Assembly: GCA_964636895.1 (NCBI GenBank)
Contig: CAZWUW010000002.1
Span: forward strand, 378 to 64,377
Reading direction: 5' to 3'
Origin: an uncultured Eubacteriales bacterium
GTDB lineage: Bacteria > Bacillota > Thermincolia > Thermincolales > CAZWUW01
DNA length: 64,000 nucleotides
In this document: piece by piece, positions 20,704 to 42,000 of the stretch
Numbering within the stretch: the first letter of the stretch is position 1
How the letters are laid out: each line of letters begins with the position of its first letter
Notes under the pieces: generated by a model
Database searches by the model: none
What the model saw: only the letters and a program-made list of their open reading frames with translations
What the model was told of the DNA's origin: nothing
Program-made: the position numbers and the translations under genes

Positions 20704-22170
20704 ATGGCTGAGGAACGAGATAACTTTGGTCTGGATATATTACAGTGCTCCGACGGGGCGGAGGTTACAGACGCCTTAAAGGACCTGGTGATGCTCGCCG
20801 GGGTGCTCAAAGACCTGGCCGCTGAACGCTTTTGGAGCGAGCCCGAAGCGGTTTTTGATACTCTTAAGACCTTTGAACTCATCCGGCGCAGCACTTTTTA
20901 CGAAGAGGAAGCCGTGCAGGGAGAAGATGAGCTGGTTTACCGTTTCCAGCGCATATACGGGCGCAGCGCGGCTATTGAGATCCCCCGGCTGGTGCGGCTG
21001 GGGCAGCGGTATAATTGGATTTCCGACAGCCGGCAGCCGCCGTTGAAGTTTACCAATACCGGTAAACGGATGGTCAACCAGATTTTCCGGATTGCTAACG
21101 ACAGTCTGTTTTATCACCGGCAAAGCCCTTCCGTGCGGGAGATTTTCCAGGCGGAGCGTGATTTGCAGCTGGCGCGGGCTTATGAAGATATAGGCATCGG
21201 TCGGCAGGATACGGTGGCCAGTGTTTTGCATAACCTGGAAAACGCCGTCAATGACCTGCGCTACCAGCGGGAAAAGTATGTCCAGGATCGCAAGGCCCTG
21301 GAAAAGTATGCCAGCGTGCTGGCCCTGGTGGAGATGCTGGAGGAAGAGTTAAAAAGCCGGTTAAATAATCCGGAAGGCGTTGTTGACCGCAAGGTGGAAC
21401 GCCAGCACCAGCGGGCTACCATTGTGTTTTACCGGGTTATCCAGGAGCTTAGCGCCTTGCTGGGCGAAAACGCGGTGACCGCCCAGCTGCAGATTGGGCG
21501 CAAGATTTTGCGCATTGACCGGGATAAGTTTATGCAATACCTGTTGGATGTTTACAGCGGCCGGACCAAGGGTTTGACCTTAAAGCCCCTGCAGGTCCTG
21601 CAGTACATGGAAGAAGGGGTTTACGCCGGGGAAGGGTTGGAAGAAGAAGGTGAGCCGGGGTTGTGGCTGCCTTTCCATATCCCTTTCTTTATCCATCAGG
21701 GTGATATTGACCGGGGCCGGGAACAGTTGGGCCATTGGATCGAGAAGTGGGAGCCGCCGGACGAAGACGTTGAAGCCTCCGGCGAGATTATCTACGAAGC
21801 GGCCCGGCAGGTTACGGCGGGTGAACTGGCCCGGATTATAGGTTATACAACCTCCATCAGTGCCGAGCTAGCCACTGATACCAGGCCGGTGGTGGAATAT
21901 ATCCGGGAGCGGCCCGGGGCTTCTATGGCCGAAATTGTTAACAGCCTGGGCGGCACCTGGGGGGATGTGGTGCGGCAGTTGTTTGTGCTGGGGTTTTTAA
22001 TTACGGAAGAAGAAGCCCGGACTTTTTTGCATCGGGCCGGTGATGAAAAGGAAAAAGCCAGGAATTACAGTTTTCCTGTTAACTACCCGGAAGACGGGGT
22101 GCGGTATATAAAAGGTACGGATAAACTTGGCCGGCACCTGGAGAAGGGGGAAGCGGCAAACAATGAGTGA
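20704..22170 (+). CDS. jetA: JetA/MksF-like (kleisin-type) subunit of a Wadjet-like system
   Basis: 488 aa, first gene of a three-gene operon ending in an SMC-like ATPase. Size, order and context match type I JetA. No motif verified by eye. Confidence 0.55.
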   Translation: MAEERDNFGLDILQCSDGAEVTDALKDLVMLAGVLKDLAAERFWSEPEAVFDTLKTFELIRRSTFYEEEAVQGEDELVYRFQRIYGRSAAIEIPRLVRLGQRYNWISDSRQPPLKFTNTGKRMVNQIFRIANDSLFYHRQSPSVREIFQAERDLQLARAYEDIGIGRQDTVASVLHNLENAVNDLRYQREKYVQDRKALEKYASVLALVEMLEEELKSRLNNPEGVVDRKVERQHQRATIVFYRVIQELSALLGENAVTAQLQIGRKILRIDRDKFMQYLLDVYSGRTKGLTLKPLQVLQYMEEGVYAGEGLEEEGEPGLWLPFHIPFFIHQGDIDRGREQLGHWIEKWEPPDEDVEASGEIIYEAARQVTAGELARIIGYTTSISAELATDTRPVVEYIRERPGASMAEIVNSLGGTWGDVVRQLFVLGFLITEEEARTFLHRAGDEKEKARNYSFPVNYPEDGVRYIKGTDKLGRHLEKGEAANNE

Positions 22171-22840
22171 GGAATTTGAGACGGCACCCGTAATGGATTT
22201 TGTCACCCTTACCAAAAGTGAACAGCGGGCCTTGTCGGAGGTGCTGATTTCCAGTAAAAGCCAGACGGGCGTAAACCGGCAGCGGGTGATGAAGCTTTTG
22301 CGGGCGCGGCGGGATGAGGTTTTTGATGCTTTTCTGCGTAAAGTTAACCGGGTGCTGGGGGATGCCCTGAAAGTGGTCTATGACCCGGTGAGTGACCGGT
22401 GTATCCCGCTAACCCGGGCTAATGCCCAGTGGACCCAGGAACTGCTGGACGACCGGCACCTGGCTTTGCTGCTGTTTTGTTTTTACCTGGGCATGACTTC
22501 CCGTACCGGAAAAATCACTTTTGATGAACTGCACGGGTATTTCCAGCGTTCCAGCCTGTATGCCGAACGAAAACTGCAGCACGCTCTGGAAACCCTGGTT
22601 AAAAGCGGGTTCCTACGGGTTGAGGAAATGCCGGGGGAGGATGAAGAAACTAAACGGGTTTACCAGTTGACGGAGATTGCCAGGAACGCGTTTTCGGCGG
22701 AGTTTTTGCAGCGTATTACCGGTGAAAGCCAGGGTGGCCAGGTTACTATGGAACAGGTTTGCAGCTTTTTTGCCCTGGACAGGCTGCAGATAAAAAAGGG
22801 TGCAATTGACGAAGGCACTGAGCAGTTTCGGATGTTTTAG
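22163..22840 (+). CDS. jetB: JetB/MksE-like subunit of a Wadjet-like system
   Basis: 225 aa from the ATG at 22163 (RBS GAGAAGGGGG). The ATGAGTGA overlap with the jetA stop implies translational coupling. Size and position match JetB. Confidence 0.55.
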   Translation: MSEEFETAPVMDFVTLTKSEQRALSEVLISSKSQTGVNRQRVMKLLRARRDEVFDAFLRKVNRVLGDALKVVYDPVSDRCIPLTRANAQWTQELLDDRHLALLLFCFYLGMTSRTGKITFDELHGYFQRSSLYAERKLQHALETLVKSGFLRVEEMPGEDEETKRVYQLTEIARNAFSAEFLQRITGESQGGQVTMEQVCSFFALDRLQIKKGAIDEGTEQFRMF

Positions 22841-22852
22841 GGGGTGGAGTGA

Positions 22853-25800
22853 TTGTATCCGGTTAAAATAAGGCTGCATGGGATCCGGGATTTCACGCCG
22901 CGCAGCATGGATTTGGGCGATGAACAGGATGATGTGCTTATTGGGGGTAAGAACGGTTCCGGGAAATCCACCCTGGTTTATGCGATGTCCTTTGCTCTGG
23001 TCAGCGGGCGGGTTTCTATTGAAGGGTTGCGCTCCAAGCTCAAACGCAAAGAGCAGGACTTCTGGCATGCCCTGGTGGGGATTTTGTTTCATAACCCGCC
23101 CAGTTCGCAGCGGAAAGATGCGCCTGAATATATTGAATTGGTGGCCGAGGTGAAATCACAGGCCGGCAGCGACCGGAAAGGCGTGGTATACTACCTGCGT
23201 GGCGGCGAGACCGCGGATAAGCTGGAGGTAATCCGCAAATTTCCGTCCCGGGCTGATGCCCGGGATTATTATAAAAGGGTTTTTGATATTGATGCCGACG
23301 GTTACTTTATGTTCTGGTATCAGGGTTCCATCGCCGATTTTGCCAATATCCCGGACACGGAGCGTTTCCGCCGGGTAGCAGAGATGTTTCAGCTGGATGA
23401 GATTCAGCGGCAGTGGCAGCAGGCCAGGGAGGAAATGAAAAGGGCGGAGGAAGATTTTGAAAATGCCAGGACAGTAGCCCTGATGAAAAAAAGACGGCTG
23501 CTGGAATTGGAAAAGCACAAGAATGCCCTGGAGCAAAGGAACCATTTGCGCCGGGAGGGGCTTATGCTTTTTGACGCCTGCTGGCGGGAATTGCTGGCTA
23601 TTGCGCAGCAGGAGGAAACTCAGGTTCGCGGGCGGCTGGCGGAAGCGCTGGCAGAGTGTAACCGGCTGCAAGAAGCCAAAGAGGAATTGGAACACCGGTT
23701 GAAGCGGGCGCGAGACCACTTGGAAAAACTCAGCCGGGAAAAGAATGGCTGGGAAGAACAGGCGACCCAGGCCAGGTCCCGGATGGACGGCTGGGGCCGG
23801 GAACTGTCCGCCTGGCGGCAGGAACAGGCTGACCTGGCGGCCAGAATTGCCGATGTGGCCAATAAAATGAAGCATATCCACCGGACAAAAGAAGAACTGC
23901 TGGAGGAACAGGGGCGCTTAAAGGAGTCGATTGCCCGTCTCCTGGATGAAGGGCAGGAATTGTCTGAGAGGATAGCCCGGCTGTCTGATGAGGAGCGGGA
24001 GATAAACCGGCAAATAGGTGCTGCTGAAAAGGAAAAGGAAAACCTGGAGGAGTCGTTGGAACGGTTGCAGGAGCAGGACCAGGGCTTGGCGGCGGAGGGT
24101 GCGTTAGCCGGAGAATTGGCGGCTGGGAAAAAGCGTCTTAATCATTGCCGGGAGTTGCTGGGTCAGGCCCGCAGCCGTCATGGGGAAAAACAGCGGGAAT
24201 ATGCAGGGCTGATGGACCGGGAGTCTTTGCTGCTCAATGAACAGGAAAGACTGCTGAAGATTTACCGGGAGGCCGGCATCCAGGCGGCAGCCTTTGGCGA
24301 AATTTTCAGGATTAAGTCCGGGGTTAAGTCCGACGAAGCTGAAGCTGTGCTGGGGCCGTTGAAACATACCGTGTTTGTGGAACGTTTGCTGGCCAAAGCG
24401 CCAATTGAGAAATCATTTTATGTGGCCCCGGTGGGGGAAGGGGTGAAACGCCCGTGGTTTGAGCTGGGGAACCGGACCGGGGAGGTTTTTCAGTGGATAG
24501 AATGGGACGAGACGGCTGCCCGGAGACTTTCCGAACCTTTTTGGCGGGGTATTGAAGCTTGGCTGAACAAGGTAGAAATAGCCCGGGCGGCGCAGCAGCC
24601 GGAAGCAGCTCGGGGCAGGCTCAAGCTTTGGCAGGGGGCTCTTTGGGACACCCATGGTATCAGGGGCCCGGTGGAAAAAGGGCCTTCGATTGGCCATGAC
24701 GCCCTGGAAAAGGCCCGGGCCAAGGCCCTTGCTGAACTTGAGCAGTATGCCGGGGAAATTGCCGGGCTAGAGGATAGTATAAATCAAACGGAAATAATAG
24801 TCGCTGGGTTGGCTGCGGACCTGCGGCTGCGGCAGGAGGTTAACGCCGCCCTGCCGGCGGCGCGGGTCAGGCTGGCCGGGCTGGACAGGGAGCTTGCGGC
24901 GGCGGAGCTGAGGTATGATGAAATTACGGTATTGCGTAAAGGGTTGGAATTAGATAAAGAAGAAAAAGTACGGCTCCGGGAAAAGGAAGAAAACCTGTTA
25001 AAGGGCGTGGAAGGGGAACTGGCCGTTTACGCCGAGTACGAGAAAGAAGCCGCGGCGGTGGCCCGGCTGAATGAGTTGGAAAACAAAACAACTGCCGGTG
25101 AAAGGCAGTTACAGGCTGAAAGAGAAGTTTTATCCGCTCTTGAGCTTGATATCGAGAAAAACTGGCAGGCGATGCAGGGTCAGAACCGGGAAATGCAGGG
25201 GATGCAAGGTGAATTGAACGGGCTGGAAAATGAGTTGGAGAACAAAGGCGCCCGCCGGCAGAACCTGGAGGAAGAGGCTGATAACCTGAGCATTGAGGGT
25301 GAGGAATACCGGAATAGCGTAGAGCATATGGGACGGGAGTTTGATGAGATAATCCAAGGGCTGGTTCGTTCCGGGCAGTGGCAGCCGCCGGAGTTTTCCG
25401 AGCGGGAGCGCACCAGAGCCAATTTGCAGCGTAAGGTCAAGGAAGGACGGGACATTCTGGATGACGCCCTGGCCAGGATGGTTGACGAAGAGGCCGGGCA
25501 AAAATACGAAGATTATGCCCTGGAGTTTGCTGATGCCGGCAGGGAACTTGAGGAATCACAGGTGCGCTTTGTCAGTCTGAAGGCGCGGGAGGAAGAGCGC
25601 CGGAACGAATTTGACAAAGCCGTGTATAATCGCTGGCAGCGGACCAATCAGAAGTTTGTCGGCTTCATGCAGCGGTTGAGCATGGTGGGCGATATCAGGT
25701 CGGTGATGCCGGACCCGGAAGGACGGAACCCGCAATACCAGTGGGAACTTCATGTGGCCACAAAACTTGGTCATAAGCCGGAAAAAATCCACCCGGAATC

Positions 25801-26155
25801 TGGCCGGGTAGTGGGCGAAGGCATTTCCGGCGGGGAGCGGGCCGCCGTTTCCTTGGTTTTTGCTTTGGCTTTGCTGAGCGATATTGAAAACAAGCCGCCT
25901 TTTTATGTCTTGGACGAATTTGACAGCGCCCTGGATGAAGAACGTAAGCATGAGATCTTCGATTTATACCGTGAGGTGCTGGGTCGGAAGCTGGTTATCA
26001 TTTCGCCGCGGGTTCACGGCGATCGGTATCTGGACCGGTTCCGCAAGTTTCACTGTGTAGTGGCAAACCCCGGAGTACTGCCCGGCCAGGCGGTCAGTGA
26101 GGTCTATGATGTCACCCGGGAAGAGTACCGGGAGGTCCGGGGGCAGGAGGAGTAG
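22853..26155 (+). CDS. jetC: JetC/MksB-like SMC-family ATPase
   Basis: 1100 aa with TTG start after GGGGTGGAG. Walker A GGKNGSGKST at the N-terminus, a long charged heptad-rich middle, then signature SGGE and Walker B FYVLDEFD at the C-terminus. Confidence 0.8.
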   Translation: MYPVKIRLHGIRDFTPRSMDLGDEQDDVLIGGKNGSGKSTLVYAMSFALVSGRVSIEGLRSKLKRKEQDFWHALVGILFHNPPSSQRKDAPEYIELVAEVKSQAGSDRKGVVYYLRGGETADKLEVIRKFPSRADARDYYKRVFDIDADGYFMFWYQGSIADFANIPDTERFRRVAEMFQLDEIQRQWQQAREEMKRAEEDFENARTVALMKKRRLLELEKHKNALEQRNHLRREGLMLFDACWRELLAIAQQEETQVRGRLAEALAECNRLQEAKEELEHRLKRARDHLEKLSREKNGWEEQATQARSRMDGWGRELSAWRQEQADLAARIADVANKMKHIHRTKEELLEEQGRLKESIARLLDEGQELSERIARLSDEEREINRQIGAAEKEKENLEESLERLQEQDQGLAAEGALAGELAAGKKRLNHCRELLGQARSRHGEKQREYAGLMDRESLLLNEQERLLKIYREAGIQAAAFGEIFRIKSGVKSDEAEAVLGPLKHTVFVERLLAKAPIEKSFYVAPVGEGVKRPWFELGNRTGEVFQWIEWDETAARRLSEPFWRGIEAWLNKVEIARAAQQPEAARGRLKLWQGALWDTHGIRGPVEKGPSIGHDALEKARAKALAELEQYAGEIAGLEDSINQTEIIVAGLAADLRLRQEVNAALPAARVRLAGLDRELAAAELRYDEITVLRKGLELDKEEKVRLREKEENLLKGVEGELAVYAEYEKEAAAVARLNELENKTTAGERQLQAEREVLSALELDIEKNWQAMQGQNREMQGMQGELNGLENELENKGARRQNLEEEADNLSIEGEEYRNSVEHMGREFDEIIQGLVRSGQWQPPEFSERERTRANLQRKVKEGRDILDDALARMVDEEAGQKYEDYALEFADAGRELEESQVRFVSLKAREEERRNEFDKAVYNRWQRTNQKFVGFMQRLSMVGDIRSVMPDPEGRNPQYQWELHVATKLGHKPEKIHPESGRVVGEGISGGERAAVSLVFALALLSDIENKPPFYVLDEFDSALDEERKHEIFDLYREVLGRKLVIISPRVHGDRYLDRFRKFHCVVANPGVLPGQAVSEVYDVTREEYREVRGQEE

Positions 26156-27674
26156 AGGTATCAGGAGCAGTAGCGCCTGCAGGTGCATTAGGGGCAGTAG
26201 AGTCAGCAGGTGCAGGGAGCATAGGCCAGATAGCTCCCCAGAGGGCCTCGTCGCCCAGCATCTCTTCCTGCTCAATATCAACGTATTCCGTATGCTGTGC
26301 CAGCCAATTGACCCATTCCTGATATGGAAGGGTCTTTTCTTTTTGTACCGTCTGTTGGGCGTGTCCGGCGGCCGGCGGCAGGACCATGGCTATGCCGGGG
26401 AACAATGCGGCCAGGGCAGCAGCTATTTCTGTTCCGGCAGTGTCCGTATCCACCCAGGCGGATATACCAGAGATTTGATTGTTCTCCGTGATCAGAGTCA
26501 GCAACCGTTTATGGGCAGTGCGCAGGCGGCCGTCAATGCCTAATACCAGTATATCAGGGCGCTTTTTCAACCAGCCTGATTTGTGCATTTTAAGCAGTAG
26601 CGCTCTGTTTTCTGTGAGAATTAGCTGGGTTGCCGGGGTTTTGAAGGATATCGCCTCTTCCACCTGGATATTTGTTACGGCCTGTATTGAGGTGGCGGCT
26701 TGGCCGCCGGTAACTAGGCTCCCGGCCAGGTAGATGCTGTAAAGGCTGCCCCGGGATATGAGTCCGGTTTCGGCGAGGGAGACATTGAAAATTTCTTCTG
26801 TGTATAAAACTAGGTTGTCCCTTTGCCGGTCAAATAGCTTGGAACCGCCAATGGCCTGGTGGTAGCCGGCACCGTTTTCTTTCCAGTCAAACCCGTCAGG
26901 ACTGGCGGCAATTGCGCCGGCCAGAGCGGTCCAGAACTCGAGGGTTATAGCAAAAAAGCTATTCATGTTGGCCGGGTCAAAAACCTTGCGAGGCTGTTCG
27001 GGGAGATGCGGCGGTGCCGGGGACTCCCCTTTTAAGTAGGCACCGGTTTTATCCAGCAGGCCGCGGGATGTGATTTTAAGCTGTTCCAATAACCGCAATT
27101 GCTTCAGCAACCGCAACCGTTCCTGTGTCATTGGCTGCTCCCGGCTGTTCTCTCGGCTGCTCCCCTGGCTGTTCGACCGGGCTTCGGTGGATATTTCAAT
27201 TGCCTGCCATTTTTTGGTCAGCCTTTTTGTCCAGGCGCGGGCGCTGACTGCTGCCGATATTTTGGCCTCATTAAGGCTGGCGGTCAGTTTTAGGCCGCGG
27301 TAGTACTGTGTCTGTAACGGGGACAGACCGTCCGCTTTTAATCGCACCCACAGGATTAGCCAGCCGGCTTTAACCAGTAGATTTGCCGTTTCTTCCGGAA
27401 TGAGGTTTTGGGCAGGGGTCTGTTCTTTGAGGGCGGCAGATAATCTGCCCGCTTCCAGGGCGTTCCGGTGCCGATACAGCCTGAGCAGAAGGTCATGCAG
27501 CCCTTTGCCGGGCGTGAAATCATCCTGGCCCCACTCGACGTAGCCCGCTGTTTTTATTTTGCGCGCGCTTTCGAGGTAGACTTTCCAGTGCCAAAAGCCT
27601 TCTCTGACCATAGGCTCGGAGGCTGGGCGCCAGCCGGCCAGCAGTTTTATTTCAGGCGGAAATTCTAAGTGCAT
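26112..27674 (-). CDS. jetD: JetD/MksG-like Toprim-domain protein, encoded convergently to jetABC
   Basis: 520 aa. Ordered Toprim-type acidic motifs LILTENRALL (E355), VLGIDG, WVDTDTAG (D409/D411) and DIEQEE. Own RBS AAGGAG 6 nt before the ATG. The 3' end overlaps the jetC 3' end by 44 nt. Confidence 0.65.
   Translation of the reverse strand: MHLEFPPEIKLLAGWRPASEPMVREGFWHWKVYLESARKIKTAGYVEWGQDDFTPGKGLHDLLLRLYRHRNALEAGRLSAALKEQTPAQNLIPEETANLLVKAGWLILWVRLKADGLSPLQTQYYRGLKLTASLNEAKISAAVSARAWTKRLTKKWQAIEISTEARSNSQGSSRENSREQPMTQERLRLLKQLRLLEQLKITSRGLLDKTGAYLKGESPAPPHLPEQPRKVFDPANMNSFFAITLEFWTALAGAIAASPDGFDWKENGAGYHQAIGGSKLFDRQRDNLVLYTEEIFNVSLAETGLISRGSLYSIYLAGSLVTGGQAATSIQAVTNIQVEEAISFKTPATQLILTENRALLLKMHKSGWLKKRPDILVLGIDGRLRTAHKRLLTLITENNQISGISAWVDTDTAGTEIAAALAALFPGIAMVLPPAAGHAQQTVQKEKTLPYQEWVNWLAQHTEYVDIEQEEMLGDEALWGAIWPMLPAPADSTAPNAPAGATAPDTSTPPAPGPPGTLPG
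27310..27341. repeat. repeat A, copy 1 (inside jetD codons 112-122)
   Basis: GTCTGTAACGGGGACAGACCGTCCGCTTTTAA is 31/32 identical to 30806-30837. Confidence 0.9.
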
Positions 27675-27751
27675 TGGGCTCTCCTTGTTGTTTATATTAA
27701 AAGTAATGCAGGGTATTTTCTTTGTTTGGTAAGCTTTTTCCTGCTTGTGAC

Positions 27752-27800
27752 AAGAATTAAAAAAATCATCTTCCGCATTTAGCGAGAAGGTGATTTTTGG
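27752..27800. repeat. repeat B, copy 1 (degenerate bidirectional-terminator hairpin) 77 nt upstream of jetD
   Basis: AAGAATTAAAAAAATCATCTTCCGCATTTAGCGAGAAGGTGATTTTTGG differs from 30839-30888 by 4 substitutions and a 1-nt indel. Confidence 0.85.
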
Positions 27801-27802
27801 GG

Positions 27803-27868
27803 ATTTAACCGGTGGCCAGCTCTATTCTGCTCCTGAATGAACCAACCAACATCCACGAGAAAGAGCAT
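27803..27868 (+). pseudogene. fragment of an ABC-F/ABC ATPase gene (signature-to-Walker B region) with internal deletion
   Basis: ATTTAACCGGTGGCCAGC matches 32100-32117 (LSGGQ region) of the intact ABC-F gene. TATTCTGCTCCTGAATGAACCAACCAAC matches 32161-32188 (LLLDEPTN). The 43 nt between them are missing. Confidence 0.7.
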
Positions 27869-27912
27869 GCCTGACAACAGGCAGCCGGTTGGCTGCCTGT
27901 TGTCAGGCATGC
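27865..27912. repeat. 48-bp perfect palindrome (22-bp arms, 4-nt centre)
   Basis: GCATGCCTGACAACAGGCAGCC-ggtt-GGCTGCCTGTTGTCAGGCATGC with no T-run following. Confidence 0.95.
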
Positions 27913-28024
27913 TCGCAATTTCCAAAATATCAAGGAAAAAGCAAAAAAACTTGCTTTTTTTAGCAATTGCACCTATAATAAATTAGTAAAGTCGTTTTAG
28001 AATTTAATAATTTTATATTTATAT

Positions 28025-28116
28025 AGAGGGAGTAACGCTCTGTGATTATTTCACAGAGGTATTGGTCGTCATCACGGTTGATTAACCCGGCCATTATCAT
28101 AAGTCGTGAGACTCTG
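28025..28116 (+). promoter_or_regulatory. candidate yybP-ykoY (Mn2+) riboswitch
   Basis: AGAGGGAGUAAC...GGUCGUCA...UUGAUUAA...GUCGUGAGACUCU resembles the GGGGAGUAG / GUCGUCA / UUGACAUA / AGCAAGACC elements of the L. lactis Mn2+ riboswitch. The 3' strand overlaps a terminator, and it sits upstream of a P-type ATPase. Confidence 0.55.
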
Positions 28117-28148
28117 TGCCATAATTATTATAGGTACAGAGTTTTTTT
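28110..28148 (+). terminator. riboswitch expression-platform terminator
   Basis: ACTCTGTGCC-ataattattat-GGTACAGAGT followed by TTTTTTT; the 5' arm shares bases with the putative closing helix of the aptamer. Confidence 0.6.
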
Positions 28149-28196
28149 ATTGTCAAAAAGTTTTTGGTAGCTATTTATTATGAGGGAGGCAAGCGA

Positions 28197-30800
28197 ATGC
28201 AGGAAATTTACAACAAATCGGCTGACACCGTGCTAAAGGAAATGCAGGCAGATATGACCGGTTTGACTTCAGAGGAAGTTGAGAGAAGAAGGCAGGAGTT
28301 TGGCTATAACGAACTCCACGAAGCGAAAAGGCCAAGTGTGATACAAGTTTTTTTCAATCAGTTCGCCGATTTTCTGGTGATCATACTTTTGGCGGCGGCG
28401 GCTATTTCCTTTCTGTTAAAGGATTACAAAAGCACCGGGGTAATCTTGGCGGTGACAATACTTAACGCCGTTTTAGGGACAGTGCAGCATATTAAAGCGC
28501 AAAAATCTCTGGATAGTTTAAAGGCTCTTTCTTCGCCGGTGGCCCGGGTTTTAAGGGGGGGCCAAAAAGTAGAAACCCCTTCCAGAGAAGTAGTCCCGGG
28601 GGACATATTGTTTTTGGAAGCCGGGGATTTTGTAAGCGCGGATGGCAGAATTATCGAGAATTACAGCTTACAGGCAAATGAAAGCTCACTGACCGGTGAA
28701 TCAGTGAGCGTAATTAAAACAGTGGAAGAAATCAGCGAGTCGGATGTTCCGATAGGCGACAGGAAAAACATGGTCTTCGCCGGCAGTCTAATCACCTATG
28801 GTCGTTCTGTAGTTGCCATTACCGGCACAGGTATGCATACTGAGCTCGGCAAAATTGCCACTTTGCTGGAAACCGCTCAGGAAAAGAAAACACCTCTGCA
28901 GGTTAGCCTTGATAAGTTTGGCAAAAAACTTGCGGCGGCGATTATGGTTTTATGTGCCGCTATTTTTGTGCTTAATGTTTACCGCGGCTTTGGGACGGTG
29001 GAATCCTTTATGTTTGCCGTCGCGCTGGCGGTTGCAGCGATTCCGGAAGCGCTCAGCTCGATCGTTACCATAGTATTGGCCATTGGCACACAGAAGATGG
29101 CAAGGGAACACGCTATCGTCAGAAAGTTGCAGGCGGTTGAAAGCCTGGGCAGTGTTTCGGTCATCTGCTCCGATAAAACAGGCACCCTGACCCAGAATAA
29201 AATGGTGGTGGAGAGGTTGTATGCCGGCGGCAAGCCTTTCGAGGTTAATAACATAAATATGACCGGCGACCTGCAAAGAAAAATCGTTGAAATGAGCGTG
29301 CTCTGCAATGATGCGGTTACTTACGGCGAGCAGGAAATCGGGGACCCGACGGAGATAGCCTTGGTAAACATGGCGGAGTTATATGCGATCGATGAAATTG
29401 AATTGAGAGAAAAATACCCCCGGCAGTCCGAGCTGCCTTTTGATTCGGAAAGAAAGCTGATGAGTACCCTGCATGTTTTAGAAGGTCAGGTTACGATGGT
29501 CACCAAGGGCGCTTTAGATGTGATTATCCAAAGAGCAACGGCAATAGACACGGGGAGCAGCCGCAAACCGATTACTCCGGAAGATATTGAAGAGATAAAC
29601 CGGATTAACCGGGAGTTTTCCCAGCACGGGCTGAGGGTTCTGGCTTTTGGCTATAAGACATTTGAAGCCCCGGTAGAATTGACGCTGGACGATGAACATG
29701 ACCTGGTTTTTATCGGGCTCGTGGCGATGTTTGATCCTCCCCGGGAGGAATCGGCACAGGCGGTTGAAGATTGCATAAATGCGGGGATTATACCCGTAAT
29801 GATCACGGGGGACCATAAAATTACGGCGGCTGCTATCGCCAGGCAGATAGGGATTCTCAAAGCAACCGGCAGGGTTGTGGAAGGCAGTGAAATCGACAAG
29901 CTGACCGATGAACAATTAAAGGCAGCTGTAGAGGGCATTGCTGTTTATGCAAGGGTGTCCCCAGAACATAAAATCAGGATAGTGCGAGCCTGGCAAGACA
30001 GGGGTAATGTGGTGGCCATGACCGGTGACGGGGTTAACGATGCGCCTGCCCTGAAGCAGGCTGATATCGGGATTGCCATGGGCAAGGTGGGTACTGAGGT
30101 GGCCAAGGATGCATCGGCAATGGTTTTGACTGATGATAATTTTGCCACCATTGTAAAAGCTGTATCTCATGGCAGAAGCATTTACACTAATATAAAAAAT
30201 TCCATCAAATTTCTTTTGGCGGGGAATACGGCGGGGATTTTAGCGGTTTTATATACGTCCATCGCAAATTTACCGCTGCCCTTTGCTGCGGTGCATCTTT
30301 TATTTATAAATCTGTTGACCGACTCCTTGCCGGCAATTGCCTTGGGGTTGGAGCCGCACAGCAATAAAGTAATGGAAGAAAAGCCCAGGGATATAAACGA
30401 GCCTATCCTGACCAAACCCTTTTTGACATCGGTTGTGTTTGAAGGTTTCGTGATTGCGGCGTCTACAGTGGCGGCTTTTTATTATGGTTTAAATAAGGGC
30501 GGGGTGTCCATGGGGAGCACGATGGCGTTTATCACCCTTTCCCTGGCGCGGTTAATTCATGGCTTTAACTGCCGTTCCCGGCGTCCGTTACACAAAATAG
30601 GTCTGTTTACCAATAAATATCAGTGGTATGCGTTATTGGCAGGAATTTTTATGTTGGGACTGGTCATTACGCTGGATCCTTTGAAGCTGGTGTTTGACGT
30701 GTATGATAATATCATCAATGAGTTACCAGTAATACTGGGTTTGGCCTTTATTCCCTTAATAGTTGTACAGGCCTATAAGACAATACGGGAAAAAATATAG
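28197..30800 (+). CDS. cation-transporting P-type ATPase (type II, Ca2+/Mn2+ family)
   Basis: DKTGTLT phosphorylation motif, TGES, MITGDH, TGDGVNDAPALKQADIGIAMG. Start placed at the ATG after GAGGGAGG (MQEIYNK...) rather than the upstream TTG-type ORF start. Confidence 0.9.
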   Translation: MQEIYNKSADTVLKEMQADMTGLTSEEVERRRQEFGYNELHEAKRPSVIQVFFNQFADFLVIILLAAAAISFLLKDYKSTGVILAVTILNAVLGTVQHIKAQKSLDSLKALSSPVARVLRGGQKVETPSREVVPGDILFLEAGDFVSADGRIIENYSLQANESSLTGESVSVIKTVEEISESDVPIGDRKNMVFAGSLITYGRSVVAITGTGMHTELGKIATLLETAQEKKTPLQVSLDKFGKKLAAAIMVLCAAIFVLNVYRGFGTVESFMFAVALAVAAIPEALSSIVTIVLAIGTQKMAREHAIVRKLQAVESLGSVSVICSDKTGTLTQNKMVVERLYAGGKPFEVNNINMTGDLQRKIVEMSVLCNDAVTYGEQEIGDPTEIALVNMAELYAIDEIELREKYPRQSELPFDSERKLMSTLHVLEGQVTMVTKGALDVIIQRATAIDTGSSRKPITPEDIEEINRINREFSQHGLRVLAFGYKTFEAPVELTLDDEHDLVFIGLVAMFDPPREESAQAVEDCINAGIIPVMITGDHKITAAAIARQIGILKATGRVVEGSEIDKLTDEQLKAAVEGIAVYARVSPEHKIRIVRAWQDRGNVVAMTGDGVNDAPALKQADIGIAMGKVGTEVAKDASAMVLTDDNFATIVKAVSHGRSIYTNIKNSIKFLLAGNTAGILAVLYTSIANLPLPFAAVHLLFINLLTDSLPAIALGLEPHSNKVMEEKPRDINEPILTKPFLTSVVFEGFVIAASTVAAFYYGLNKGGVSMGSTMAFITLSLARLIHGFNCRSRRPLHKIGLFTNKYQWYALLAGIFMLGLVITLDPLKLVFDVYDNIINELPVILGLAFIPLIVVQAYKTIREKI

Positions 30801-30805
30801 TAATA

Positions 30806-30888
30806 GTCTGTAACGGGGACAGACCGTTCGCTTTTAAGAAGAATTAAAAAAATCACCTTCCGCATTTTTGCGTGAAGGTGATTTTTAG
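30806..30888. repeat. repeat A copy 2 abutting repeat B copy 2; B2 is the bidirectional terminator between the ATPase and the downstream convergent gene
   Basis: A2 is 30806-30837 and B2 is 30839-30888. The hairpin AAAAAAATCACCTTC-cgcatttttgcg-GAAGGTGATTTTT is flanked by an A-run and a T-run. Confidence 0.85.
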
Positions 30889-30894
30889 TCTTTC

Positions 30895-31437
30895 TTAGGC
30901 AATTTTTCTCCACTCCTCCGATAACGCTATAAATTGTTTTTTGTCCCTGGCATCCAGGGCATTGTCAATCAGGATCAGCAGCGCTTGTTTGTAGATCTTG
31001 GCAAACTCCAGGTCAAACTCTGTGCGTTCCCCGAGCTCAGCCATCATCCGCTCTAACGCCGGGATGGCTTTGGCGAAGGGGTTCGGTGCGCAGATGTTGA
31101 TGTACCAGTAAGGGCTCGCCCGCTCGGGGAAGATCAGGTAAATGTAATACAGATCCAGGGATTGAATGATTTCAAAGATTGCATTGATGTCCTTGTAGCC
31201 CTCGCCGTTATACGTCAGAATGGTGGGGACTTTTGCCGTGTCACAACTGATTACCAACAGGGGCTCATCTGTGATGTAGGTCAGGTCGTTTAAAAAAACG
31301 CCCTTATCAATTACTTCCAGTTCGCTCCACAGCCGGAAGACGATCCCCAGGGTCATGTTGTCCCTGATTTCATAATCCTTTACATACTGCATCAGGACCT
31401 TGGTCTTGCTTTTGGCAGTAATAAACTTCTTCAGCAT
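30895..31437 (-). CDS. YpiB/UPF0302-like protein with C-terminal IDEAL domain
   Basis: 180 aa from the ATG with GGAGGTG RBS (MLKKFITAK...). The C-terminal LILIDNALDARDKKQFIALSEEW matches the IDEAL-domain pattern. Confidence 0.6.
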   Translation of the reverse strand: MLKKFITAKSKTKVLMQYVKDYEIRDNMTLGIVFRLWSELEVIDKGVFLNDLTYITDEPLLVISCDTAKVPTILTYNGEGYKDINAIFEIIQSLDLYYIYLIFPERASPYWYINICAPNPFAKAIPALERMMAELGERTEFDLEFAKIYKQALLILIDNALDARDKKQFIALSEEWRKIA

Positions 31438-31615: not shown

Positions 31616-33169
31616 GTGAGTGTATTAAATGTGGAAAAGGTTTCTCATGGTTTTGGGGAGCGGGTTATTCTTGATGATGTGTCTTTTCGCCTGCTTAAAG
31701 GTGAACACGTGGGTCTTATCGGTGCCAACGGTGAAGGGAAATCGACTTTCTTAAATATAATTACCGGCCAGTTAATGCCTGATGCGGGAAAAGTCGAATG
31801 GTCAAACCGGGTGACGGTCGGCTACCTGGATCAGCACACCACACTGGAGCCAGGACAAACTATTCGCGCTGTTTTGCGTAGTGCCTTTAACCGGCTTCTC
31901 GGCCTGGAAACGGAAATGCAGACTGCCTATGAAAAAATGGCCACGGCCGATGAGGAGGAAATGAATAAGCTCCTTGAGGCGGTGGGGGATATTCAGGATA
32001 TTCTGGACCACAGCGGTTTTTATACTATTGACGCTAACGTAGAAGCAGTGGCCAATGGTCTGGGCTTGGGAAGCATTGGCCTGGACCGGGAGGTTGGAAA
32101 TTTAAGCGGTGGCCAGCGAACCAAGGTGTTGTTGGCTAAGCTGTTATTGGAACAGCCATCTATTCTGCTCCTGGATGAACCAACCAACTTTCTTGATGAA
32201 GAGCACATTGCCTGGCTGACCAAGTATTTGCAGGATTATGAGAATGCCTTCATCCTGATTACCCACGATATAGAGTTCCTCAACAAGGTAATCAATGTCA
32301 TTTATCATGTTGAGCAGGGCCGGTTAACGCGCTATGTAGGTGATTATAACAAGTTTATGGAGCTTTATGAAACTAACAAGGCCAAGCATCATCAGGCATA
32401 CGAAAAACAGCAGCAGGAAATCGCTAGGCTGGAGGACTTTGTGGCCAGGAATAAGGCTCGCATCTCTACTACCGGTCGGGCCAAAAGCAGGCAAAAGCAG
32501 TTAGATAAGATGGAGTTGATTGAAAAACCAAGGGAAAAGATGAAGCCAAACTTTAAGTTTCAGGAAGCCCGGGTTCCGAGTCGGATAATTTTTCGCACCG
32601 ACGGTTTGCAAATTGGTTATGACAGAGCGCTCACCAAGCCCCTGAATATTCAATTGGAGCGGGGGCAAAAGGTGGCTTTAAAGGGCTGTAACGGTTTAGG
32701 CAAATCAACCTTGCTGAAAACCCTGCTGGGAATTCTGCCACCGGTGGGGGGCAAGCTGGAAAGCGGGGATTACCTATATCCGGGATATTTTGAACAGGAA
32801 GCGCAGGGCAAAAACACTAAAACGGCCCTGCAGGAATTATGGGACGAATATCCGGGGCTGACTCAGTTTGAGGCCAGAGCTGCCTTGGCCCGCTGCGGAT
32901 TAAAAAATGAGCATATTACCAGCCAGATGCAGGTATTAAGCGGCGGGGAGCAGGCTAAGGTGCGCCTGTGCAAGCTGATGCTGCAGGAGACCAACTGGCT
33001 GGCGCTGGACGAGCCTACGAACCATCTGGATGTAGATGCCAAGGCCGAGTTGAAAAAAGCTATAAGAGAGTTTAAAGGCACAGTGATTCTTGTCTGCCAT
33101 GAACCGGAATTTTACGAAGATGTGGTGACCGAAGTCTGGAATGTGGAAGATTGGAGTGACTTGGGGTAA
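31616..33169 (+). CDS. ABC-F family ATPase (two ABC cassettes, no TM domain)
   Basis: 517 aa with GTG start after AGGAGG. Two Walker A motifs (GANGEGKST, GCNGLGKST), two signatures (LSGGQ, LSGGE) and two Walker B motifs (LLLDEPTN, LALDEPTN). Confidence 0.9.
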   Translation: MSVLNVEKVSHGFGERVILDDVSFRLLKGEHVGLIGANGEGKSTFLNIITGQLMPDAGKVEWSNRVTVGYLDQHTTLEPGQTIRAVLRSAFNRLLGLETEMQTAYEKMATADEEEMNKLLEAVGDIQDILDHSGFYTIDANVEAVANGLGLGSIGLDREVGNLSGGQRTKVLLAKLLLEQPSILLLDEPTNFLDEEHIAWLTKYLQDYENAFILITHDIEFLNKVINVIYHVEQGRLTRYVGDYNKFMELYETNKAKHHQAYEKQQQEIARLEDFVARNKARISTTGRAKSRQKQLDKMELIEKPREKMKPNFKFQEARVPSRIIFRTDGLQIGYDRALTKPLNIQLERGQKVALKGCNGLGKSTLLKTLLGILPPVGGKLESGDYLYPGYFEQEAQGKNTKTALQELWDEYPGLTQFEARAALARCGLKNEHITSQMQVLSGGEQAKVRLCKLMLQETNWLALDEPTNHLDVDAKAELKKAIREFKGTVILVCHEPEFYEDVVTEVWNVEDWSDLG

Positions 33170-39580: not shown

Positions 39581-39831
39581 TAATCATCGCCCTTTCCTTG
39601 TTATTTTTTGGTCTTAAAGTATAATCCCACTAGTAATTTTACTTTAAAACTTCATTTTAGTAAAGTGTTAAATAGCCGGCTTTTTCGTGCCTTCTTCAGG
39701 ATTTTTGTTGTACTTCGACAATTTATTTGTGACGTGTCAACCAGGCCATGATAAAATAATTATTACAGGTGAGGAACGTTTTTCCTGTTTTATACGTCTA
39801 AAAGTATAAATAAATTTATGGGAGGATGTTT

Positions 39832-42000
39832 ATGAGAAGGAAAACCGCATTGTGTTTATTAGTCGTCTTGATGGCCACCGTCCTGTTCCCGGTGCAGGCG
39901 CTGGCCGGGTATGACCGGGAGTTGGAGAAAGCTATTACCACGACCAAAGCCCTGTTTAAAATTTCCGCCGGGTATGACAACTTCACCTACAATATCAACA
40001 AGCGGAAAGACAATACTGTTTATGACCTGATGTGGAATGACAGCAAAAACAGGCTCGGTAACGTCAGTGTCAGCATTGATTCAAATGGCAAGGTGCAGAA
40101 TTATCATACTTATAAGCCTTATGACGGGAAGTATCAGCAGAAAAAGCTGCCCTCTGTCAGTAAAAGCGACGCCCGGAAAAATGCCGACCAGTTTATCCGC
40201 AAAGTGCACCCGGATTTGTGGAACAAGCTGGAGTATCAGGAAAACAATTATCCGAGGAATATTAATGACAGGAATTATCAATTCAGGTACATAAGGATAG
40301 AAAACGGTATACCCTTCCCGGAAAACTCGGTAAATATTGCGGTAGATGCCATGAATGGCGATATTCAGAACTTTAACTATACCTGGCATGAGGGCGTAAC
40401 TTTCCCAGCCGGCGAGGGGGTTATCGGATTGGCGGAAGCCCAGCAGAAATTTGCCGGCAAGCTGGGTTTAAAGCTGCTCTATAAGCTGAATCTTGAACCA
40501 AATGACCAAAAGCCTTACGCTGTTTATGCAATTGTTTATAATAACCGGTTCCTGGATGCGAAAACCGGTGATGTCGTCACTACGGAAAATTACTACTTTG
40601 GTTATGGTTACGGCTATGGCGGCTACAAAGAGAGGATGATGGATCAAGGCGGTCAAAACAGCTATGCCGCTACGAAACAGGAAGCCTTAACGCCAAAGGA
40701 ACAGGATGCGGTAAAAAATGCCGCCGATATCATGAGCCAAGAAAAGGTCGAGGATATCGCCAGAAAAGCTTTTAGTATTGGCGCCGACTTTAAATTGAAC
40801 TATGTCAACCTATACAGCTATTGGCGGAGCAAAGACGACTACAATTGGAATCTGGACTTTGGCAAGGAAGAAAAAAGCGGCGGCAGCACCCAGTTTTATA
40901 ATATCGCTGTTACTATAGACGCCCGGACCGGCGATATTCTAAATTTTTACAGGAGTGTTCCTTATGAAAAGGATAGTCGTATTGCTTATAGTGAGGAGCA
41001 GGCCCTGAATATTGCCACAGATTTCATTAAGGCGATCCAGCCGGCGAAATATCAGGAAGTTGAGCGGACAACGTGGCGTGAGCCTGTTGTTAAGCCTATG
41101 GAAGAACAGCGGGAAGCCCTTTTTACCTTCGCCCGGAAAACAAAGGGTATTTATTTTATGGAAGACGGCTTTACTATTAGCGTGGACAGAGTGACGGGTA
41201 CGGTTACCGGTTACGTTTTTAACTGGTATAAAAAGGATTTGCCGGCGGTTGACAAGATTATCTCCCTGGACGCTGCGCACAAGGTATTGTTTGAAAAAGC
41301 AGGATTACAGCTGCAGTATATTTCCCGTTACCCGGTGGATACGCGTACCACTATAATGCCGCCGGACCCGAAAATTAAACCGGAAATCAAGCTGGTATAT
41401 GCTCTGAAGCCGGAAAAGCCTGCTAATGTTGATGCGTTTACCGGTAAATTGCTGCAACATGACGGCAAGCCCTTTGAGGAAGGTGGTACTGCAGTTTACA
41501 GCGATATTAAGGGGAATTTTGCCGAAAGCCAAATCAAGGTGCTTGCTGAATATGGCATTACCCTGCCCGGCAGCCAGTTAAAGCCCAGTCAGCACATTAC
41601 CCAGCGGGAGTTCCTGTACCTGCTGCACAAAGCGATAAATCCATATGTTGAAATAGACTTTCCCGCGGATAGTAAAGAGGACGAAGCCCTTTACAATTTA
41701 CTGATCGGGGCCGGTATAGTCAAGGAGGGGGAAAAGGCGCCGCAATCCATTGTATCCAGGCAGGAGGCGGTAAAGTTTTTGATCAGGGCCCTCACTTATG
41801 ATAAAGTGGCGGAGATTAAGGGCATATACGCCCTGCCGTTTAAGGATGCCGGGAATATAAAGCCGGATCTCTACGGGTATATGGCAATTGCTTATGGGTT
41901 AAAGATTATTCAGGGCGATAATGGATACGCCAAGCCAACGGCCAGCTTGACAAAGGCGCAGAGTTTCGTCTTGCTGTATAATTTTTTGAATGTCCAATAG
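39832..42000 (+). CDS. secreted cell-wall-associated protein with repeated PepSY-like modules and C-terminal SLH-like repeats
   Basis: Signal peptide MRRKTALCLLVVLMATVLFPVQALA. Three C-terminal SLH-like segments (YSDIKGNFAESQIKVLAEYGI..., ...LIGAGIVKEG..., FKDAGNIKPDLYGYMAIAYGLKIIQG). Confidence 0.5.
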   Translation: MRRKTALCLLVVLMATVLFPVQALAGYDRELEKAITTTKALFKISAGYDNFTYNINKRKDNTVYDLMWNDSKNRLGNVSVSIDSNGKVQNYHTYKPYDGKYQQKKLPSVSKSDARKNADQFIRKVHPDLWNKLEYQENNYPRNINDRNYQFRYIRIENGIPFPENSVNIAVDAMNGDIQNFNYTWHEGVTFPAGEGVIGLAEAQQKFAGKLGLKLLYKLNLEPNDQKPYAVYAIVYNNRFLDAKTGDVVTTENYYFGYGYGYGGYKERMMDQGGQNSYAATKQEALTPKEQDAVKNAADIMSQEKVEDIARKAFSIGADFKLNYVNLYSYWRSKDDYNWNLDFGKEEKSGGSTQFYNIAVTIDARTGDILNFYRSVPYEKDSRIAYSEEQALNIATDFIKAIQPAKYQEVERTTWREPVVKPMEEQREALFTFARKTKGIYFMEDGFTISVDRVTGTVTGYVFNWYKKDLPAVDKIISLDAAHKVLFEKAGLQLQYISRYPVDTRTTIMPPDPKIKPEIKLVYALKPEKPANVDAFTGKLLQHDGKPFEEGGTAVYSDIKGNFAESQIKVLAEYGITLPGSQLKPSQHITQREFLYLLHKAINPYVEIDFPADSKEDEALYNLLIGAGIVKEGEKAPQSIVSRQEAVKFLIRALTYDKVAEIKGIYALPFKDAGNIKPDLYGYMAIAYGLKIIQGDNGYAKPTASLTKAQSFVLLYNFLNVQ

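Follow-up and report, generated by a model that had tools for sequence, protein, structure and literature searches.

Organisation of the locus

The window analysed here is a stretch of 64,000 nt from contig CAZWUW010000002.1 (assembly GCA_964636895.1) of an uncultured Eubacteriales bacterium. It contains a type III Wadjet island whose jetD gene is followed by a P-type ATPase gene, a reoY/ypiB-like gene and an intact ABC-F gene, and the ATPase gene is surrounded by short second copies of sequence from its neighbours. The features are as follows.

20704-22170, plus strand: jetA, first gene of the GC-rich Wadjet type III island
22127-22840, plus strand: jetB, same island
22853-26155, plus strand: jetC, same island
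26112-27674, minus strand: jetD, intact, convergent with jetC, the 3' ends overlapping by 44 nt; holds source segment A
27310-27341: A, inside jetD (codons 112-122), source of A'; 31/32 identical to 30806-30837, a unique pair in the 64-kb window
27675-27746, minus strand: native upstream region of jetD and edge of the Wadjet island, homologous (77%) to related loci L014, L015 and L016
27747-27800: B, left copy of the reoY terminator hairpin (A-run, stem, T-run), parted from reoY; ~90% identical to B'
27797-27873, plus strand: C, ABC-F pseudogene remnant of 77 nt, made up of a signature-motif piece and a Walker-B piece
27863-27914: perfect 24-bp palindrome with a 4-nt loop, at the end of C
27950-28196, plus strand: promoter-like site and structured leader of the ATPase gene, with a terminator at about 28025-28160
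28197-30800, plus strand: P-type ATPase gene, type II, Ca/Mn-like (Pfam and NCBIfam), between the duplicated flanks
30806-30837: A', 32-nt jetD remnant right behind the ATPase stop codon, also present in the identical independent contig L001
30838-30888: B', native hairpin of reoY and predicted bidirectional terminator, common to the convergent ATPase gene
30895-31437, minus strand: reoY/ypiB-like gene, with UPF0302 and IDEAL domains (Pfam IDEAL, 25.8 bits)
31616-33169, plus strand: intact ABC-F gene (NF000355, 404.6 bits against a cutoff of 380); the counterpart of C is 32094-32214

Three direct repeats around the ATPase gene

The original prediction named three homologies around the ATPase gene, and all three are present where it placed them, each in direct orientation relative to its source. 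Besides the near-identical pair A and A', hairpin B (aligned over 27743-27798) matches B' (30830-30886) in blocks of 34/38 and 19/21 separated by a 1-nt indel. Remnant C consists of C1 (27797-27820), identical at 21/24 positions to 32094-32117 in the ABC-F gene, C2 (27821-27850), identical at 29/30 positions to 32159-32188, and a diverged tail to 27873 (11/17, a 3-nt gap, 6/6). The match to ABC-F is thus real, with a missing internal piece of 41 nt (32118-32158) and not of 43 nt as first read. This deletion is out of frame, and C also carries a D-to-N replacement in Walker B and a premature stop. The intact ABC-F gene, whose assignment holds because its product passes the NCBIfam ribo_prot_ABC_F cutoff, is the only other match to C in the window. 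Source order is kept on both sides of the ATPase gene, as A'-B' on the right and as B-C1-C2 on the left, and the predicted spacing of A and B was recovered as well: 410 nt separate them on the left, and on the right the gap is about 1 nt.

A self-BLAST of 18-36 kb, the self-comparison proposed for this locus, returns six repeats in all, three of which are the A, B and C homologies. The dispersed family that the original prediction had weighed against itself is not what we found: each element has two copies in the 64-kb window, where shuffles expect 0, and the longest exact stretch common to any pair of copies is at most 22 nt. The data support the view that the copies are locus-specific duplicates, and a dispersed (REP/MITE-like) repeat or a mobile hairpin is ruled out by the two copies per element in 64 kb, by the absence of the hairpin from viral contigs and by the lack of a plasmid match to 27743-28200, which spans B. 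Divergence between the copies is uneven, amounting to 1/32 in A, ~10% in B, 4/54 in the core of C and 6/17 plus an in-frame 3-nt gap in its tail (Fisher p about 0.005-0.01). Uniform neutral decay of a duplicate made in situ does not predict such a pattern; it points instead to a donor copy that had already diverged, or to error-prone synthesis close to the palindrome.

This layout is genuine and no assembly artefact, since two independent Logan contigs cover the right and left junction regions. Contig L001 (SRR13723397) is 100% identical over the 3' end of the ATPase gene, A', B', reoY and the 5' end of the ABC-F gene. Contig L013 (SRR22746113), from a strain 97-98% identical and the sole close-strain contig, is collinear over jetD, B, C and the palindrome and already carries the short remnants, so that the present structure is fixed in two strains.

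The palindrome at the end of C has a predicted fold of -53.3 kcal/mol (z -10.3), and its outer left arm is ABC-F-derived, the homology to ABC-F reaching 27873. The left arm differs in L013. The palindrome is absent from all 18 fetched loci, which rules it out as a repeated element.

The Wadjet island and its convergent jetD gene

Homologs of JetA, JetB, JetC and JetD are encoded side by side in the window, and all four proteins match the type III profiles of PADLOC (JetA3, 7e-63; JetB3, 4e-30; JetC3, 2e-145; JetD3, 1e-54), so the gene had rightly been called jetD. The GC content of the jetABC island is 0.52-0.57 versus 0.44-0.50 in its flanks. Drawings of type III Wadjet (JetABCD), an anti-plasmid system, usually show all its genes in a single co-directional operon. 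The window differs in that jetD lies on the minus strand, convergent with jetC and overlapping its 3' end. Homologs of jetD at 96, 68 and 51% identity cover 94-97% of the gene; the convergent layout is found in L015 and L018 as well, and the 44-nt overlap is repeated in L018. Convergent jetD is therefore a trait of this Wadjet clade, and a recent inversion of jetD is ruled out as its cause by the convergent arrangement in relatives with 68% and 51% JetD identity. An exact look-up of the JetD and ATPase proteins gave no match on record, and a limited literature check on the orientation of jetD in type III Wadjet found nothing relevant.

The jetD gene and the 72 nt upstream of it are collinear with the 68%-identical relative up to position 27746. 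The homology of the window to L014, L015 and L016 likewise runs unbroken from jetD to 27746 and ends there, placing the edge of the Wadjet island directly before hairpin copy B. Identity between the window and L014 within jetD is ~77-78% on either side of codon 122, and the mismatch profile between the window and L013 has no divergence breakpoint near that codon. Together, the profile and the even identity rule out a recombination breakpoint in jetD near codon 122. With convergence shared across the clade, the recombination history that had been proposed for the 5' end and promoter of jetD is not borne out, and the functional 5' end looks native, not recombinant.

The reoY terminator hairpin

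The reoY product is a YpiB/ReoY-like protein with an IDEAL domain, in line with its earlier label of ypiB-like. It scores below the cutoff of the NCBIfam ReoY family, and its homologs are 61-79% identical. Scans of genomes and metagenomes with a ReoY query yielded one useful locus, L002. In every reoY relative examined (L002, L006/7, L008, L010/11/12) the hairpin lies a few nucleotides past the reoY stop codon, and these relatives have no ATPase gene, A' or C. Because the same hairpin trails the reoY stop in all of them, B' beside reoY is the native copy.

The predicted fold of B' is -22.5 kcal/mol on the reoY strand (z -7.3), and those of B are -19.2 kcal/mol on the plus strand and -15.2 kcal/mol on the minus strand (z -5.8 and -4.5). 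With A7 upstream and T5 downstream, both B and B' have the form of intrinsic bidirectional terminators, and for B' the predicted hairpin agrees with its proposed role as the terminator between convergent genes. B is identical in strain L013. B and B' share CCGCATTT where all relatives have CCGCTT, and they also share the flank AAGAATTAAAAAAA. On the strength of this shared derived state and flank, B and B' are sister copies that arose in this lineage.

A search of viral contigs returned no copy of the hairpin, and the interval 27743-28200, which spans B, has no match in plasmids. Beyond B and B' the 64-kb window contains no further copy, and none lies upstream of jetA, which rules out a hairpin flanking the other side of the Wadjet island. 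Extra copies in relatives are confined to the same locus.

The ATPase gene and its leader

Pfam and NCBIfam confirm the gene between the repeats as that of a type II, Ca/Mn-like cation pump of the P-type ATPase family. Its C-terminus is near full length relative to homologs, and its closest relatives are just 72% identical and lie in unrelated gene context. A promoter-like site, TTGCTT-17-TATAAT as read by eye, stands upstream, and L017 has a conserved counterpart of the leader, with compensatory pairs, before its 72%-identical ATPase gene. On the minus strand, 28156-28127 has the form of a consensus promoter. A predicted terminator hairpin overlaps the 3' strand of the conserved segment.

The leader had been called a riboswitch, a label that we do not retain, conserved though the leader is. 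Its best resemblance is to the yybP-ykoY (Mn2+) aptamer, with which it shares the motifs GGGAGUA(A/G)C and GUC..CAU..AC, a 3' GAGAC segment that overlaps the predicted terminator stem and a place upstream of a Ca/Mn-type ATPase gene. It differs in scoring 8.4 bits (E about 1-2) against Rfam RF00080, where the gathering score is 45, and in that the homologous leader of L017 does not match RF00080 at all. No known riboswitch reaches the Rfam gathering threshold in this leader, and with a sub-threshold hit as the best resemblance the known-riboswitch reading is not confirmed.

Related loci

In L014 the corresponding slot holds a different ATPase, 42% identical to that of the window. Its 5' side carries an ABC-F remnant in two collinear pieces, 148 nt having been lost between them, and this remnant is translationally coupled to the ATPase gene. 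On its 3' side is a 5' piece of jetD, followed 59 nt further on by a hairpin that is a copy of the one upstream of L014's own jetD. The comparison with related genomes thus gave similar remnants around an ATPase gene, but around a non-orthologous one; either the cargo was swapped or parallel events took place in two genomes.

Both L006 and L010 have an RM cassette between two copies of the reoY 3' end and hairpin, and duplicative events therefore recur at this site. The region downstream of reoY is a variable hotspot with RM, Dnd and Wadjet systems. No integrase or transposase domain was detected in the window between 18 and 44 kb, nor in the segments between the repeats of L006 and L010.

Discussion

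We consider the region to be, more likely than not, the decayed remnant of a duplicative rearrangement S-X-S'. S would be at least about 1.8 kb long. One end would lie within jetD, at codon 122 or further in, and the other at nt ~600 or later of the ABC-F gene, and between them would be the jetD start with its 72 nt of native upstream sequence, the terminator hairpin and the reoY gene; X would be the ATPase gene with its leader, with S on either side. Circularised DNA with X and S could have integrated by a single (Campbell-type) crossover, X could have entered by illegitimate 'duplicative' insertion, or a block already ending in an ATPase gene could have been duplicated in tandem; each would give such a structure. 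One copy of each part would then have been deleted, long direct repeats and doubled genes being unstable and redundant. On the left, jetD and its upstream region would have survived, with hairpin B and the pieces C as traces of a stretch from which reoY and the bulk of ABC-F were deleted; on the right, the hairpin, reoY and ABC-F would have survived, and the truncated 5' part of jetD would have shrunk to the 32 nt of A'. We infer the full-length duplicate, the order of events and the origin of S-X-S' from these stubs.

Each functional part is kept once, jetD being intact only on the left and reoY and ABC-F only on the right, and the lost copies are disabled, C by its frameshift, D-to-N replacement and stop and A' by reduction to a stub. 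The homology to related islands stops at 27746, just before B, which points to an ancestral adjacency of jetD, the 72 nt, the hairpin and reoY. Where A' meets B' there is imperfect microhomology between GCTTTTAA, from the end of A, and GCTTGTGA at 27743-27750, as would be expected of a 410-bp deletion. A block on both sides of the ATPase gene with reciprocal decay, as originally proposed, stands as the simplest history. Insertion of the ATPase gene as the cause is not established; a block with an ATPase gene already inside it, duplicated in tandem, fits equally well. No remnant of the ATPase gene or leader was found past the intact ABC-F gene, which counts against a pure tandem duplication because that variant predicts one. 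Among the relatives examined we found neither an intact S-X-S' genome or a longer or full duplicate intermediate, nor the pre-event layout of jetD, hairpin, reoY and ABC-F without the ATPase gene.

Alternatively, there may never have been a long duplicate, and one insertion of the ATPase gene by break repair with serial template switching (MMBIR/FoSTeS-like) would have copied 32 nt of jetD, the hairpin and two ABC-F pieces from nearby into its junctions. The patches are indeed short (24-55 nt) with sources within 5 kb, mismatches crowd the junctions and the perfect palindrome, the outer arm of the palindrome repeats ABC-F-derived sequence in inverted orientation, a hallmark of template switching, and error-prone synthesis would fit the uneven divergence. 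We nevertheless regard such a patchwork as unlikely. The collinear, direct order of A', B, C1 and C2 favours S-X-S', because deletion remnants must be collinear and templated patches need not be; four direct patches in source order would be a minority outcome under free template switching. Moreover, B sits exactly at the native place of the hairpin relative to the island edge, and the ABC-F remnant of L014 is likewise in two collinear pieces around an internal deletion, which looks like ordinary pseudogene decay.

Three lineages (L006, L010 and that of the window) have cargo past reoY with a hairpin copy at each end, in a variable hotspot with RM, Dnd and Wadjet. This could also reflect site-specific or hairpin-targeted integration, in which the reoY terminator is an att-like site doubled with each cargo and A' and C arrived with the cargo. 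However, the bracketed segments have no integrase or transposase inside or adjoining them, neither viral contigs nor the rest of the window contain the hairpin, and 27743-28200 is unmatched in plasmids. Nor does such integration explain why C lies at the expected reoY/ABC-F place beside B and A' at the expected jetD place beside B', and we judge it improbable. A chimeric assembly of co-occurring strains at short repeats, or chance and low-complexity matches, can practically be dismissed: the contig looks metagenome-derived and the related lineage L016 was found in the same run as L013, but exact shared stretches of at most 22 nt are too short to mislead modern assemblers, the two independent Logan contigs that span the junction regions come from other runs, and shuffles expect 0 matches.

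A broader proposal, which we put forward as a long shot, is that recombination is concentrated at the reoY terminator and the jetD-side edge of the Wadjet island, where unrelated cargo would be captured again and again and each capture would duplicate tens to thousands of base pairs of local sequence. If true, it would represent an undescribed hairpin-associated cassette capture near defence islands, recombinase-independent or trans-acting, with two non-orthologous P-type ATPases and an RM cassette as cargo, and it would explain the parallel order of ABC-F stub, ATPase gene, jetD stub and hairpin in two lineages.

Returning to S-X-S', the region offers a readable case, from a sparsely sampled lineage of Bacillota, of accessory genes settling beside a defence island, by a path in which local sequence would be duplicated around a cargo gene and deletions would then trim it to functional boundaries. 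The analysis fixes the edge of the Wadjet island, marks the reoY terminator as a recurrent breakpoint and indicates that the 5' end of jetD was not rebuilt. The duplication scar is ordinary genome archaeology, a real trace of rearrangement and no new kind of system. Specialists may care more for the Wadjet III clade with convergent jetD, the conserved leader with its sub-threshold likeness to an Mn riboswitch, and the different ATPases in one slot.

Comparison with known systems

Islands at gene 3' ends with att duplication resemble the window, L006 and L010 in that cargo lies past reoY between direct repeats that include a gene 3' end and terminator. They differ in that no recombinase is present here and the repeats of the window reach jetD and ABC-F sequence 0.4-1.2 kb off, beyond any att core. 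Campbell-type single-crossover integration, or homology-facilitated illegitimate recombination of foreign DNA, leaves cargo between direct repeats of host sequence. It yields S-X-S' and would also account for the somewhat diverged second copy of ABC-F; the window differs in showing no identified vector, plasmid or donor, and the crossover cannot be located. Duplication followed by reciprocal (random) loss is familiar from bacterial gene duplication and amplification and from the tandem-duplication-random-loss model of gene-order change. The window departs from that model in having an extra gene, the ATPase, at the joint, in a unit that takes in part of a defence gene, and in copies worn to stubs of 24-55 nt, from which the full duplicate would have to be reconstructed. 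It resembles the model in its two collinear block copies, of which complementary functional parts are kept and pseudogene stubs mark the losses.

Results

The window contains a Wadjet type III system, with jetA, jetB, jetC and jetD all matching PADLOC type-III profiles. It is followed on the jetD side by 72 nt of jetD upstream DNA and then by a series of partial duplicates that surround an ATPase gene.

Features of the locus, left to right (window coordinates)
20704-22170, plus strand: jetA (PADLOC type-III profile)
22127-22840, plus strand: jetB (PADLOC type-III profile)
22853-26155, plus strand: jetC (PADLOC type-III profile)
26112-27674, minus strand: jetD (PADLOC type-III profile); contains A, 27310-27341
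27747-27800: B, A-run/hairpin/T-run element, right of the 72 nt of jetD upstream DNA
27797-27873: C, two ABC-F gene pieces (C1, C2), between B and the palindrome
27863-27914: perfect 24-bp palindrome, right of C
Between palindrome and ATPase: promoter-like site and structured leader
28197-30800: type-II P-type cation ATPase
30806-30837: A', 32-nt jetD piece, right of the ATPase
30838-30888: B', second hairpin, between A' and reoY
30895-31437, minus strand: YpiB/ReoY-like gene (reoY)
31616-33169: intact ABC-F gene

The Wadjet block (21000-27500) has a GC content of 0.52-0.57, against 0.44-0.50 in its surroundings, a rise consistent with horizontal acquisition. The earlier label "ypiB-like" for reoY is acceptable: the product has an IDEAL domain, its ReoY family match lies below cutoff, and a homolog is named YpiB by JGI.

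The three homologies of the original prediction (A, B and C) are present as described, with all copies direct. A and A' are identical at 31/32 positions and B and B' at 34/38 and 19/21 with one indel, while C matches the intact ABC-F gene at 21/24 and 29/30 positions and then, less closely, through a tail (11/17 and 6/6 on either side of a 3-nt gap) that extends the ABC-F homology to 27873, 11 nt inside the left arm of the palindrome. The proposed deletion between the C blocks stands, with a true length of 41 nt rather than 43 nt. Each element occurs exactly twice in the 64 kb, with zero copies expected in shuffled sequence; no copy of the hairpin was found in viral contigs, and a plasmid search with window 27743-28200, hairpin included, gave no match. 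At the right junction, contig L001 (SRR13723397) covers the ATPase 3' end, A', B', reoY and the 5' end of ABC-F and is identical to the window throughout. At the left junction, contig L013 (SRR22746113), from a 97-98% identical strain, is collinear with window 26160-27906; its JetD is 96% identical, and its B and C are identical base for base. These independent contigs over both junction regions, together with the shuffles, exclude an assembly artefact or chance matches, and the locus carries a real, locus-specific rearrangement scar.

Homologs of reoY at 61-79% identity were found and their contexts fetched for comparison. In every context with sequence beyond the reoY stop, a hairpin ATCACCTTCCGC...GCGAAGGTGAT lies a few nucleotides past that stop, and no ATPase, ABC-F or jetD sequence adjoins it in any of these loci; it follows that B' is native, reoY's own terminator, and that B is a displaced copy. 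The state CCGCATTT and the flank AAGAATTAAAAAAA are common to B and B' and absent from the relatives, and so one of the two arose as a copy of the other within this lineage. Folding gives a strong hairpin for each of them on both strands. Just past the ATPase stop, the A' stub also holds a 6-bp hairpin (30806-30824, GTCTGT...ACAGAC) that leads into a T-rich tail; this could add to termination, which might explain the survival of A'.

Nucleotide homology between the window and loci L014, L015 and L016 extends through jetD, its start codon and the 72 nt upstream and ends at 27746, just before B. This position is therefore the end of the Wadjet island, to which the functional 5' end of jetD and its upstream region are native. 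The suggestion that the jetD 5' end and promoter had been rebuilt is not supported, since island homology is continuous to 27746 and no divergence breakpoint is visible near jetD codon 122 against L013 or L014; the rearrangement product on the jetD side is the extra copy A' only. A recent inversion of jetD is ruled out, convergent orientation being a trait of this Wadjet type III clade: jetD is also convergent with jetABC for JetD homologs at 68% (L014, L015 and L016; L015 128-7135) and 51% identity (L018), and a 44-nt overlap between the 3' ends of jetC and jetD is shared by the window (26112-26155) and L018 (4746-4789). A limited look at the Wadjet literature found no mention of this layout. 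Where the two genes overlap in the window, the sequence is a tandem repeat of low complexity (26142-26213). The position of the island, or of a ~21-kb block, differs between the window and L015: a sodium:solute symporter precedes jetA in the window, and in L015 the Wadjet block comes after a homolog of the DUF4901/PepSY gene that the window carries at 39826-42000 (L015 7804-7925 against window 41872-41993).

A parallel arrangement is found in L014 (JGI 3300003668), whose jetABC and jetD are 87-88% and 77% identical to those of the window. In window orientation (slot at L014 4944-7860), jetD and its 72 nt of shared upstream DNA come first, then K, a conserved block with hairpin H at its start, and a MazE-PIN pair. 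Next are a fragment of a DnaA-like pseudogene, which shares 95-96% identity with the copy beside the reoY hairpin in L002, and two collinear ABC-F 3' pieces, 88% and 77% identical to window 33083-33157 and 32862-32934. The stop codon of this ABC-F pseudogene lies 1 nt before the ATG of a P-type ATPase, whose own stop is overlapped by a 56-58-nt jetD piece (codons ~35-54; 51/56 to L014's own jetD). A copy of hairpin H, which also lies upstream of L014's own jetD, follows 59 nt past that piece, and then come an ECF-sigma operon, a reoY neighbour in other relatives, and further decayed copies of K and hairpin B. The order of ABC-F stub, ATPase, jetD 5' stub and hairpin from upstream of jetD therefore recurs. 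The two ATPases in this slot are only 42% identical, and the closest relatives of the window ATPase and leader (72%) sit in unrelated context. The window also has a DnaA-like AAA gene (61701-62447, 248 aa) adjoining an SNF2 helicase gene, with pseudogene relatives in L002 (2508-3354, beside the reoY hairpin) and L014 (7609-8199).

The DNA downstream of reoY varies among relatives: L006 and L010 each have an RM cassette there, with a Dnd cluster as well in L006. The reoY terminator therefore borders an accessory-gene hotspot. Both RM cassettes are bracketed by two copies of the reoY stop, 3'UTR and hairpin (copies at L006 7800-7848 and 10562-10610; L010 1790-1822 and 4415-4447), those of L006 matching over 50 nt at 92%, and provide a third example of duplicated sequence around cargo at the reoY site. 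The bracketed cassette comprises a methyltransferase and a BglII-like endonuclease; in L006 the duplicate continues through the reoY stop codon and 3'UTR, with the endonuclease stop aligned with the duplicated reoY stop.

The label "riboswitch" for the ATPase leader is not borne out by Rfam, which returns nothing at the gathering threshold. A 72%-identical ATPase in L017 nevertheless has a conserved counterpart of the leader (28025-28160; L017 ~5700-5850) ahead of it, in which base-pair changes are compensatory and a terminator is present; the 5' half of the terminator overlaps a conserved GAGACUCUG segment. Motifs GGGAGUAAC and GUCGUCAUCAC liken it to yybP-ykoY, but it reaches only 8.4 bits (E ~1-2) against the Mn2+ aptamer model in a relaxed Rfam search; it is a plausible, putative divergent or variant metal-sensing leader or riboswitch. 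A perfect consensus sigma-70 promoter (TTGACA, 18 nt, TATAAT) on the minus strand of the leader (28156-28127) faces the palindrome, hairpin B and jetD; since L017 does not share it, it may be due to chance.

Discussion

The best reading of the locus is that a block came to be duplicated on either side of the ATPase gene and was then cut back by reciprocal deletions, next to the Wadjet island and at the reoY terminator, a breakpoint that recurs. With the native hairpin beside reoY and the island edge at 27746, the ancestral order would have been jetD, 72 nt, hairpin, reoY, ABC-F, and a block of at least 1.8 kb (S) would have lain on both sides of the ATPase gene and leader (S-X-S'). In the right copy, A' followed by B' would be the ancestral order minus 410 nt, and their junction falls within imperfect microhomology (GCTTTTAA vs GCTTGTGA). 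The left copy, B, C1 and C2, would be the ancestral order minus reoY and the ABC-F 5' part (~1.2 kb) and minus a further 41 nt; C also has a stop codon and a D-to-N change in Walker B. Reciprocal loss would then have left each function surviving once. This history, put forward in the original prediction, is the best explanation because the four remnants are all direct and all in source order, as deletional decay must leave. A one-step, MMBIR-like templated-patch junction fails on that strict collinearity on both sides and on the exact placement of B at the island edge, although it would account for the small patches and the clustering of mismatches. Att-like, hairpin-targeted integration would explain hairpin duplication in three lineages but has no recombinase present and fails on the positions of A' and C.

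The copies differ by ~3-12% outside the C tail, and the structure is older than the split from strain L013, in which B and C are identical. An S-X-S' arrangement could have arisen by Campbell-type integration of circularised DNA carrying the ATPase and flanking homology, by duplicative illegitimate insertion or by tandem duplication of a block ending in an ATPase, all of which fit; that no ATPase remnant was found after the intact ABC-F argues mildly against a pure tandem duplication. Mismatches number 6/17 in the C tail, which also has an in-frame 3-nt gap, against 4/54 in the C core (Fisher p=0.0096) and 1/32 in A (p=0.005), an unevenness that a somewhat diverged donor copy, or error-prone synthesis close to the palindrome, fits better than uniform neutral decay. 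The outer left arm of the palindrome (GAGCATGCCTG) derives from ABC-F, and the right arm is therefore an inverted copy, the mark of fold-back or template switching at the deletion joint. Perfect in the window, the palindrome has a left arm reading GAGCATATT--ATAACAGG in L013 (~1-45), either strain variation or an error near the contig end.

The L014 layout supports duplication followed by differential decay as the local mode of evolution and suggests that the ABC-F-to-ATPase adjacency may be old. It is compatible with either one old event and a cargo swap or two parallel events; in each of the two genomes the right-hand copy mirrors the arrangement upstream of jetD in that same genome, which tips the balance slightly towards separate events or towards homogenisation of long repeats at an early stage. 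The scar exemplifies an already known type of genome change, and the L014 parallel is the only part of it that could point to something more unusual.
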